A stretch of DNA of 64,000 bases from Hormiphora californensis. Lineage: Eukaryota; Animalia; Ctenophora. Where the stretch lies: the NCBI GenBank assembly GCA_020137815.1, contig CM035359.1, positions 4,030,001 to 4,094,000 of the forward strand. Direction: 5' to 3'. The notes beneath the pieces are model-generated. The model had not been told where the DNA came from. It was given only the letters and a program-made list of their open reading frames with translations, and made no database searches. A program made the translations under genes and the position numbers. Shown here piece by piece: positions 57,201 to 60,200 of the stretch; position 1 is the first letter of the stretch; every line of letters begins with the position of its first letter.

Positions 57201-60200
57201 AACTCCTTATATGGGCATAAAATTCCAATCTTGTGGAATTTATTCTGACTCGACTATAGCTTAGTTATCAATGAATCCACCTCTAATACCTTTGGAATGG
57301 CATTTTGCACATTTCTGAAGCTTTTTGTAGCCAAATTCCAGCATCTTCATAGTTTTCCAAAAACAAAAACAGTGTTAATGGCCAAAATATCGAAAAATTC
57401 CGGTATGTTATAATGGTAGCTCAGACAATTTCCTCGGTATGTTCAAAAAATTAGAACTTTCTGTTTTGTAGTTTGGACACAGGAATTTTTTCCCGCCGTA
57501 CAAGCGATATTATTACCCCTCCGTGAGCTAGCGCAGAGGGGGAATTTCATTACCAACCCATATTCAGGTCCACCGTATACGACAGACATGCATCTTGCTG
57601 CTAACAGTGGTAAAATGGTGGTACTCGATAAGTTGCTATTCAAGCTGAAAGAACGGGGTTCACGTGTCCTGATCTTCTCTCAGGTTGGTGAGATAGTTAC
57701 TTTAACTAAAGAGAGCAAGAGAAAGATTGTTACTTTAACTAAAGAGAGCAAGAGAAAGATTGTTACATTAACTAAAGAGAGCAAGAGAAAGGTTGTTACT
57801 TTATCTAAAGAGAGCAAGAGAAAGATTCTATCAGGTAGCAAATGTTTAACAATGCCGTTTTATCCCCCTCCCCCGGCCACCCCTAAGTAATATTGTGTAA
57901 CACCCCAGATGACACGATTGTTGGATATCTTGGAGGATTATCTGATCTGGAGAGGGTTCAAATACTTCCGACTTGATGGTAGTACTGATCACTCTGAGCG
58001 ACAGGTTTGTTACCATAGTTACCCTAAAACTCGATGTTAGGTTACCATGCCAATGAAGATCGAACTCGATTAAACCAAGTTTTATCTCAATATATTTCAA
58101 CAAACAAAAGGGGCAAAAAGTTTTGGTATCGAAGACACCTCACACTCTGTTTAGAGGTATCAGAAGGGCTTGCCCTATTTTTATAGCGCGCCCAAAACGT
58201 TATACTGAGCACTGAAAAGTTGTAGTCTACACTACATAGTTCTAGCTAAGGGGTTTGAGCCGCGCACAGGGCCACACCGAGACCAAATCTCGTTACTTTC
58301 CTGATTTCTTTGACACAAACAAGTACTGCAGAGCGGCCAATAGAGCTGGCGGTTTCAAACTTCGTCCGTATTCGGAGGGATAGATTAGCAGTTCAGTGTT
58401 TCAAACCAGGTTTAATTTGGCAAAGTAGAAGCTGAGTTACAACATGTTTTGTACAAATGGTTCAACTTCAAGACCTTTTTAATTTTGATGGCCAGACCTT
58501 TCAAGATAGAAACTTCAAACTTTGCCACGATCTTTGATATGATGTTAAGCATACCTGACCTACTTTTTCAAAAATTTTTTTCAACATTAACACCTAAAAC
58601 TGATTTCAAAACCAAGGTTCCGGGGATAATTTTTTAAATATGAGTACAGAATTATAATTTTCAGACAATTTGGTGGGGAATACCAAAATTTGGTGCATTT
58701 TCATTGAGTGGTTGAGGAGCTATTAATTTTTGAAGTGAATCAAAGCGGGTTTGTTACCCCTACTCAGGCCGCTTCGCGGCCTTCGTTTGGCGTGCTTCGC
58801 ACGCCGCGCCGGCAAGGGAGGGGTAACTTCGTTACCAACAAAAAGTTTAAATGCAGATCTGACAATGAACATGGCTAATTTTTTTAAAGTAAGGGTGAAA
58901 TTGTAACATTTTAAAAGTAAGGGTGGCATTATAACATCCACTCCCATGACAGACGAATATCGACAAGTTTAACGAACCAGGAAGCGAGTACTTTTGTTAC
59001 ATTCTCTCCACCCGAGCGGGGGGTTTGGGAATCAATCTGGCCACGGCTGATACCGTCATCCTCTATGATTCTGATTGGAATCCACAGATGGATCTTCAGG
59101 CACAGGTTGGTGAGATTGTTACTTTTACTAACGAGAGCAAGAGAAAGATTGTTACTTTTACTAAAGAGAGCAAGAGAAAGAGAGTGATACCTAATATATC
59201 TTTTGGTCGGTTTGCACTTTTCAGTCATCATAAACATCAGTCAATGATTTTCTCAGGATCGAGCTCACAGGATTGGTCAGAAGAAGCAGGTAGTGATATA
59301 TCGGTTTGTGACGGAGAACAGCGTTGAGGAACGGATCATCGATAAGGCGGAGAGGAAACTGAAATTGGACCATTTAGTCATTCAACAAGGTACTGTAATT
59401 CCATTCTTGCTAGAAACCCAGTATAACTGACACCCTGTACCTGTTTCTCACACAGCAACTGACCCCCCTGTCACGTGACCTAAATAACGAGTTCTGATTG
59501 GTTGTTGACCTGTTTCAGGTCGTCTGGTTGACAATAATACCAAGGTCGACAAAGAGGAAATGTTGTCATGGATCAGGACTGGGGCTGACTTCATCTTTTC
59601 AAGCAAGGATAGTACAGTTACCGATGACGATATCGATGAACTGATATCAAGGTAAACACTAAACTCCTCTTTTACCCTTTCTTTCTCTATCTCTCTCTCT
59701 CTCTATCTCTCTCTCTATCTCTCTCTCCCTCCCTCTCTTTCTCTCTATCTCTCTCTCCCTAGTTAATGTAACTAACTCACTCAATCAGGGGCGAAAAGAA
59801 GACGGAGGAGAAAAATAAGATCCTGGCTGCCCAAACTGAGGAAAATCTAAAAAGTTTCAGTATGGAAGATGACCCTACTTACAACTTGTACAGCTTTGAT
59901 GGTAAATTTCCACTCTATCTTCACTCCAGTGACAGCAGACTCTATGCTTCACGCAGCCTCTGACAGCTCGCTGCTTCGCTAGGCTCTTAATCAGAAAATA
60001 CTCTTCAGGTGTACGTAGCAATTCAGTGTAGATCTATCTCTATATCTAGTCTCTCTCTCTCTCTTCGTCTCTCTCTCTCTCTCTCTCTCCTCTCTCTCTC
60101 TCCTCTCTCTCTCTCTCTCTCCTCTTTCCCTCTTCTCGTAACCCCTCCAGGTCTCGTTCGGCGCAGATACTCTCTGATTCCTCCACGGGGCGCAGCTAAT

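Follow-up and report, generated by a model that had tools for sequence, protein, structure and literature searches.

A single 64,000-nt stretch of genomic DNA from Hormiphora californensis, referred to here as the window, was analyzed, and all counts of core copies given below were made within it. Three genes were modelled by coordinates, with 47 introns in total: 23 in an SMARCA5/ISWI ortholog (forward strand, 51260..64000; 24 exons modelled, running past the window edge), 11 in a KH-domain gene (forward strand, 1510..26200; 12 exons modelled, one of them with a confirmed Pfam KH_1 domain) and 13 in a CFAP91 gene (reverse strand, 38584-45402; Pfam PF14738). The CFAP91 model keeps frame breaks at both ends, and there is a frame break in its long exon near 39100. 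For the KH-domain gene we retain the name FUBP used in the initial annotation. The 23 SMARCA5 introns give a single open frame of more than 1000 codons, and an RNA contig spans the intron that ends at 59788; by frame and homology, the SMARCA5 donors at 57684 and 59106 are taken to be real splice sites. An intron-free, coding-looking stretch (48400-50850) lies just 5' of SMARCA5. FUBP intron 10 is largely filled by a tandem array of ~460-550-bp units (16266-23631), with an acceptor-like site near 17177. The low-quality, G-/C-rich sequence at 8700-11600, where FUBP exon 7 recurs together with its flanks (9883-10005), is probably an assembly fault.

A 26-nt core is present at six loci in the window. 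When the window introns were searched for it with strand and distance recorded, as the initial annotation had proposed, five splice-site copies were obtained (two SMARCA5 donors, two SMARCA5 acceptors and one FUBP acceptor), all of them exon-facing at 4-8 nt. At the donor of SMARCA5 intron 11 (57684), the core lies on the reverse strand in an array of 4.2 copies of a 33-bp unit that follows the donor directly (57684..57827; first core 57688-57713, tip 4 nt from the donor). The same 33-bp unit, again on the reverse strand, is repeated 2.1 times behind the donor of intron 13 at 59106 (59106..59181; first core 59110-59135, tip 4 nt from the donor). The remaining copies are on the forward strand. 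A single full core (59755..59780), overlooked in the initial annotation, ends 8 nt 5' of the SMARCA5 intron 15 acceptor (59788) and has a CT-rich tract ahead of it, and a partial core (60727..60752) ends 4 nt 5' of the intron 16 acceptor (60756). In FUBP, a mirage-type array (discussed below) of nine 45-bp units (2440..2842), each holding the core, the intron 2 acceptor (2832) and the opening bases of the exon that follows, brings the core tip to 7 nt from the splice site; one unit length upstream, an older, diverged core copy (2395..2420) is present. The distances of the four copies first noticed, 4, 4, 7 and 4 nt, are indeed similar. The sixth locus (29829..30119) lies between modelled genes and consists of about nine (8.9) copies of a 34-bp unit holding the core; no splice site was identified there, and no coding exon was recognised among 47 stop-to-stop frames read by eye.

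The resemblances that first drew attention to these introns were reproduced. The start said to be shared by the two donors, searched as written, gave two matches (57684 and 59106) against 0.01 expected. The reverse complement of the donor sequence matches the end of FUBP intron 2 at 18 of 21 positions in the best local alignment of the first 60 nt of the 57684 intron, and at 18 of 26 positions over the core. The partial match at the intron ending at 60756 has a profile score of 18.0 bits, and shuffles give 0.03 such matches per window. A 26-letter pattern produced 25 matches over five loci in a search of the window; as this pattern was derived from those same copies, the fair test is a leave-one-out profile, under which the five full copies score 25.7-29.0 bits, compared with a top shuffled score of 21.7 bits (30 shuffles). 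Pairwise identity among core copies ranges from 14 to 23 of 26 positions, and all full copies share one stopping point within the core. One match, scoring 16.9 bits and lying midway through FUBP intron 7 (7601-7626), was doubtful and was left out (0.17 expected per window at 16 bits); if real, it would be a second core copy away from splice sites. Six further profile matches of 11-12 bits in the window were within the shuffle rate.

Inside its own intron, each copy has a chance of 0.011-0.12 of placing its tip within 8 nt of a splice site. Combined by hand arithmetic, with the two donors counted once and the partial copy dropped, the chance of the observed placement is ~2e-4, for an 8-nt window that was picked post hoc with the data already seen. 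The core is absent from 89 of the 94 modelled intron ends. These data support the conclusion that, within the window, the core sits near splice sites more often than by chance and faces the exon.

Read in acceptor orientation, the core comprises a CT-rich stretch, a near-palindrome (two 6-nt arms with 3 nt between them) and, directed toward the exon, a short end that includes CTC. A stable hairpin is unsupported, with z values of -2.5 to +0.9 over six copies. Rfam returned no match in the window, and a viral sequence scan with the core pattern gave none either. Tandem arrays are present at four of the six core loci, with unit lengths of 33, 33, 34 and 45 bp, and the copies at 2832, 57684 and 59106 are the end units of their arrays. 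Exon sequence is included only in the 45-bp FUBP array, where the unit duplicates the junction and thereby supplies eight spare acceptors upstream of the real one (2832), each of which would read into a stop. The 33-bp donor arrays abut the exon-intron junction and do not span it. Two of the six loci have flanking direct repeats: the one across the 57684 donor is 9 nt long and has one mismatch, and the one at 29829-30119 is a perfect 7 nt. The null rate is 2-5% each, and the locus boundaries were set by eye. There is no support for an origin of the core from the ends of the abundant TTGG-ended element in the window (scores of -2.4 to 4.5, against 20-32 for true termini). Two metagenome matches to the 26-letter degenerate pattern were dismissed as chance, since they lie inside ORFs of gene-dense, prokaryote- or phage-like contigs and share only a 24-nt match with the window.

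In other sequence data, bins holding the 33-bp arrays reach 37-173 times the median single-copy depth across three sequencing runs from two species, a figure that is not a copy number and to which GA-rich look-alikes at 80% likeness may add. On this summed contig depth, the core family is probably multi-copy in the host and in a related species. Contigs break inside the 33-bp arrays. In a second sample, one contig is identical to 57744-58113 and 58839-59169 and covers part of both donor arrays, which argues against assembly error. Missing from the same contig is a 725-bp intronic element with inverted ends (58114-58838), an insertion polymorphism.

Intron ends in this window collect tandem duplications generally. 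Within 40 nt of an intron end lie 18 of the 29 intronic minisatellite arrays (10.1 expected), and 19 of 22 (12.5 expected, P 0.0004) once dispersed repeats are masked and seven arrays located in very long introns or inside transposon-like elements are dropped. Copies of an intron end's own junction were found at 6 of 94 intron ends, compared with 5 of 4324 in the control. Duplications over or beside splice sites that are unrelated to the core (63290-63511, 60861-60905, 25615-25669 and 61487-61657) comprise a 37-bp acceptor array, a donor duplication, an acceptor duplication and a 40-bp array; the donor duplication, near 60874, carries 25 extra letters in the second sample.

Mirror matching between donors and acceptors is not unique to the core. 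It was seen in 27 of 2162 pairs, compared with 13 on the same strand, and 8 of the 27 are due to a 110-bp element. A second mirror pair joins the SMARCA5 intron 8 acceptor (55850-55898) and the FUBP intron 2 donor (2040-2076) with a score of 43; at both, a single 10-11-nt unit is repeated in a short tandem array, and the two arrays run in opposite directions. The 110-bp element has inverted repeats and 8-bp target duplications, and we take it to be hAT-like. Its nine copies in the window are located at 3235-3344, 5446-5555, 29217-29326, 30453-30553, 51521-51630, 54718-54827, 56251-56357, 59467-59522 and 62643-62726. Six of its seven intronic copies are no more than 40 nt from a splice site (3.1 expected, P 0.005), two of them 8 nt behind a donor. 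An AT-rich, near-palindromic repeat is found just behind several donors and before some acceptors (56786-56830, 43700-43760, 42814-42842, 63245-63290 and 55040-55066), and its hexamer occurs at 9 of 47 donors, compared with an interior rate of 5.6%. SMARCA5 introns 4 and 10 hold two copies of a 580-bp element in opposite orientation that are 98% identical (53585-54161 and 56978-57556).

The age of the carrier introns was gauged from short protein fragments called on genomic contigs. Among the best 120 of 1210 matches to the exon before 59106, a V (translated GT) directly follows the exon end in 60 fragments, with no other offset between -4 and +5 exceeding 8, and 45 fragments run on in frame into the sequence of the next exon. 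The 60 breaking fragments are 76-89% identical to the window exon, with insect, crustacean, mite, mollusc, annelid and unnamed proteins as the nearest. Because homologous fragments break at this point, the position of SMARCA5 intron 13 is likely ancient. At 57684 the same break is present in 2 of 7 fragments, a weak signal. The initial annotation had proposed checking whether the positions of these introns are missing from orthologs in related species; such an absence is contradicted for intron 13 (60 of 120 fragments) and weakly so for intron 11 (2 of 7). The 3' part of intron 13 is also present in the related species, starting inside the last array unit. Since at least one carrier intron is likely ancient, the repeat likely colonised existing intron ends and did not create introns.

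We therefore favor, with a probability of roughly 0.55, a reading in which a short dispersed repeat has seeded minisatellites at pre-existing intron ends and has been held where splicing was undisturbed. Copies of the core would have been placed at exon edges by DNA repair or replication slippage; tandem arrays would then have grown at four of the six loci, and copies would have persisted only where splicing was not disturbed. Acceptors would tolerate only the CT-rich strand of the core, because in this orientation a branch-like TAAC falls at -14 to -23 and AG is kept out. As oriented, the core leaves 0-1 AG between -20 and -3 of the acceptor; with the core flipped, the last 18 nt would contain 3-5. 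Across the 47 introns, 41 have no AG at -20..-3 and none has more than one, and branch-like positions peak at -25..-16. The orientation at acceptors has thus likely been filtered by splicing. At donors, the two copies could represent one arrival followed by a local copy: they have ~75 nt in common at a spacing of 1.4 kb, which means that a single event may account for the donor half of the mirror and for the donor orientation. Two observations fit this reading less well. A passive hot spot alone does not account for five copies in which the same core end comes to lie 4-8 nt from the splice site, and the target-duplication-like direct repeats at two of six loci point to insertion.

Considerably less probable, and close to the targeting alternative named in the initial annotation, is a very small, non-autonomous mobile element with splice sites already in place as its active targets, which would insert on either strand with one fixed end exonward and bring its own branch point and pyrimidine tract to acceptors. 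Such an element would account for the shared end position of all full copies, for the placement of five of the six loci 4-8 nt from a splice site, for the direct repeats around two loci (the 57684 donor and 29829-30119) and for a family that looks multi-copy in two species; the 110-bp element of the same window also lies near splice sites in six of its seven intronic copies. However, four of the six loci are without a flanking repeat, with boundaries set by eye, and judged as a MITE or other non-autonomous DNA transposon, the core loci have no inverted termini and flanking direct repeats at only two of six. The core does not clearly resemble the ends of the other element abundant in the window, its hairpin is weak, and four of the six loci are clustered in a 3.1-kb part of one gene, as local copying would also explain. 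A more specific proposal, in which a mobile element of 30-40 bases homes in on splice sites already present, overwrites either end of an old intron and then amplifies, is still more tentative. This element would offer a branch point with a pyrimidine tract on one strand and a donor-like start with a purine tract on the other. It would act as a parasite of splice signals, replacing intron ends and creating no introns, with splicing kept.

Selection for a functional motif at exon edges, either a splicing element or, given the near-palindrome, a dimeric DNA-binding site, appears improbable. The arms of the near-palindrome pair 6/6 in two copies and 4-5/6 in four more, the core occupies the branch-point position at acceptors, and reverse branch-like pentamers are enriched behind donors (18 of 47, P 0.004, for one of seven motifs tried), all of which would agree with a function. 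Yet a splicing element acting at the RNA level should not work in both orientations, one array is outside the modelled genes, and 89 of 94 intron ends do without the core. Moreover, 26-nt identity together with tandem arrays resembles copying rather than convergence.

The initial annotation had interpreted the mirrored ends as remnants of a TIR element that made these introns, as introners do, and this we now consider very unlikely. Donor copies do match the reverse complement of acceptor copies with scores of 31-43 (99th percentile ~27-28), as two termini of one element would. However, a published introner pipeline requires that similarity reach both boundaries, with 5' ends matched to 5' ends and 3' ends to 3' ends, and discards secondary insertions and satellites (PMC12130899). 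The introns at 57684 and 59106 score 100 at their 5' ends and 10 at their 3' ends (median 13 over 1081 pairs), and look-alike introns share one end only. None of the carrier introns in the window has the core at both ends, as had already been remarked. TIRs and target-site duplications at the boundaries are frequent, though not universal, among introners. In the five carrier introns, self-complementarity of the ends is 9-13, compared with 9-21 over all 47 introns, so that complementary ends are lacking, and the junction repeats of carriers (2-4 nt) are ordinary for a set in which they span 1-7 nt. The core also starts 4-8 nt inside the boundary and not at it. For SMARCA5 intron 13, recent gain is contradicted by an intron position common to distant homologs. 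Introner families are expected to have at least four members in unrelated genes; the core was found in two genes and one locus outside the modelled genes in the window.

That low-complexity sequences resemble each other by chance, or that the assembly is faulty, as the CT/GA-rich flanks and the low-quality stretch at ~8700-11600 might suggest, is scarcely credible given leave-one-out scores above every shuffle and a second sample and a related species that hold parts of the donor arrays.

A seed shared across boundary arrays makes the origin of such arrays testable in a single genome. Should the seed prove to be a mobile element that targets splice sites, this would open a route to the wholesale replacement of the branch points and pyrimidine tracts of old introns. 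There is also a practical warning, as one-ended similarity among introns can imitate the signal of introners.

Among known systems, introners are similar in that a repeated sequence is placed at intron ends in unrelated genes and in that an aquatic host is likely, according to the accessible portions of three reports (PMC12130899, PMC11282704, PMC9860276). In contrast to introners as described in the portion available of PMC12130899, the Hormiphora family is not alike up to both boundaries and is present in at least one old intron. Pleurobrachia is named once in the supplement of PMC9860276, in a genome list, and was not found in the searched supplementary files of PMC12130899. A shared, mirror-oriented core between loci was not described in the literature searched, a body of text from which most subscription papers fall out.

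Minisatellites at splice boundaries provide a closer parallel. In human F7 intron 7, a 37-bp VNTR has a first unit that spans the splice site and contains silent pseudo-sites (PMC1557585). Unlike the Hormiphora core, this VNTR is a single locus, and no dispersed shared core is described in the consulted sections of that paper. The mirage minisatellites of lancelets (Adh3, the globins BflGb6/BflGb9 and PGBD5) are head-to-tail duplications at or across exon-intron boundaries, at donors as well as acceptors, that carry spare splice signals and vary in copy number, as far as the available text of both reports goes (PMC3087553, PMC3902484), and in the same part of the first of these their origin is called unclear (PMC3087553). 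The 45-bp FUBP array, with its tandem unit spanning the exon-intron junction and eight extra junction copies, fits the accessible mirage descriptions exactly, including an older, diverged end unit; the 33-bp donor arrays stop at the junction. Lancelet mirages, in those descriptions, each arise from their own locus, whereas the Hormiphora units at different genes share one core, whose orientation is reversed between donors and acceptors, and exon sequence is absent from three of the four arrays. Overall, the Hormiphora core is a real splice-boundary minisatellite with a dispersed seed and not an introner, and what is new about it, relative to the splice-boundary minisatellites known from the available parts of these sources, is one core common to several loci and its mirror orientation.
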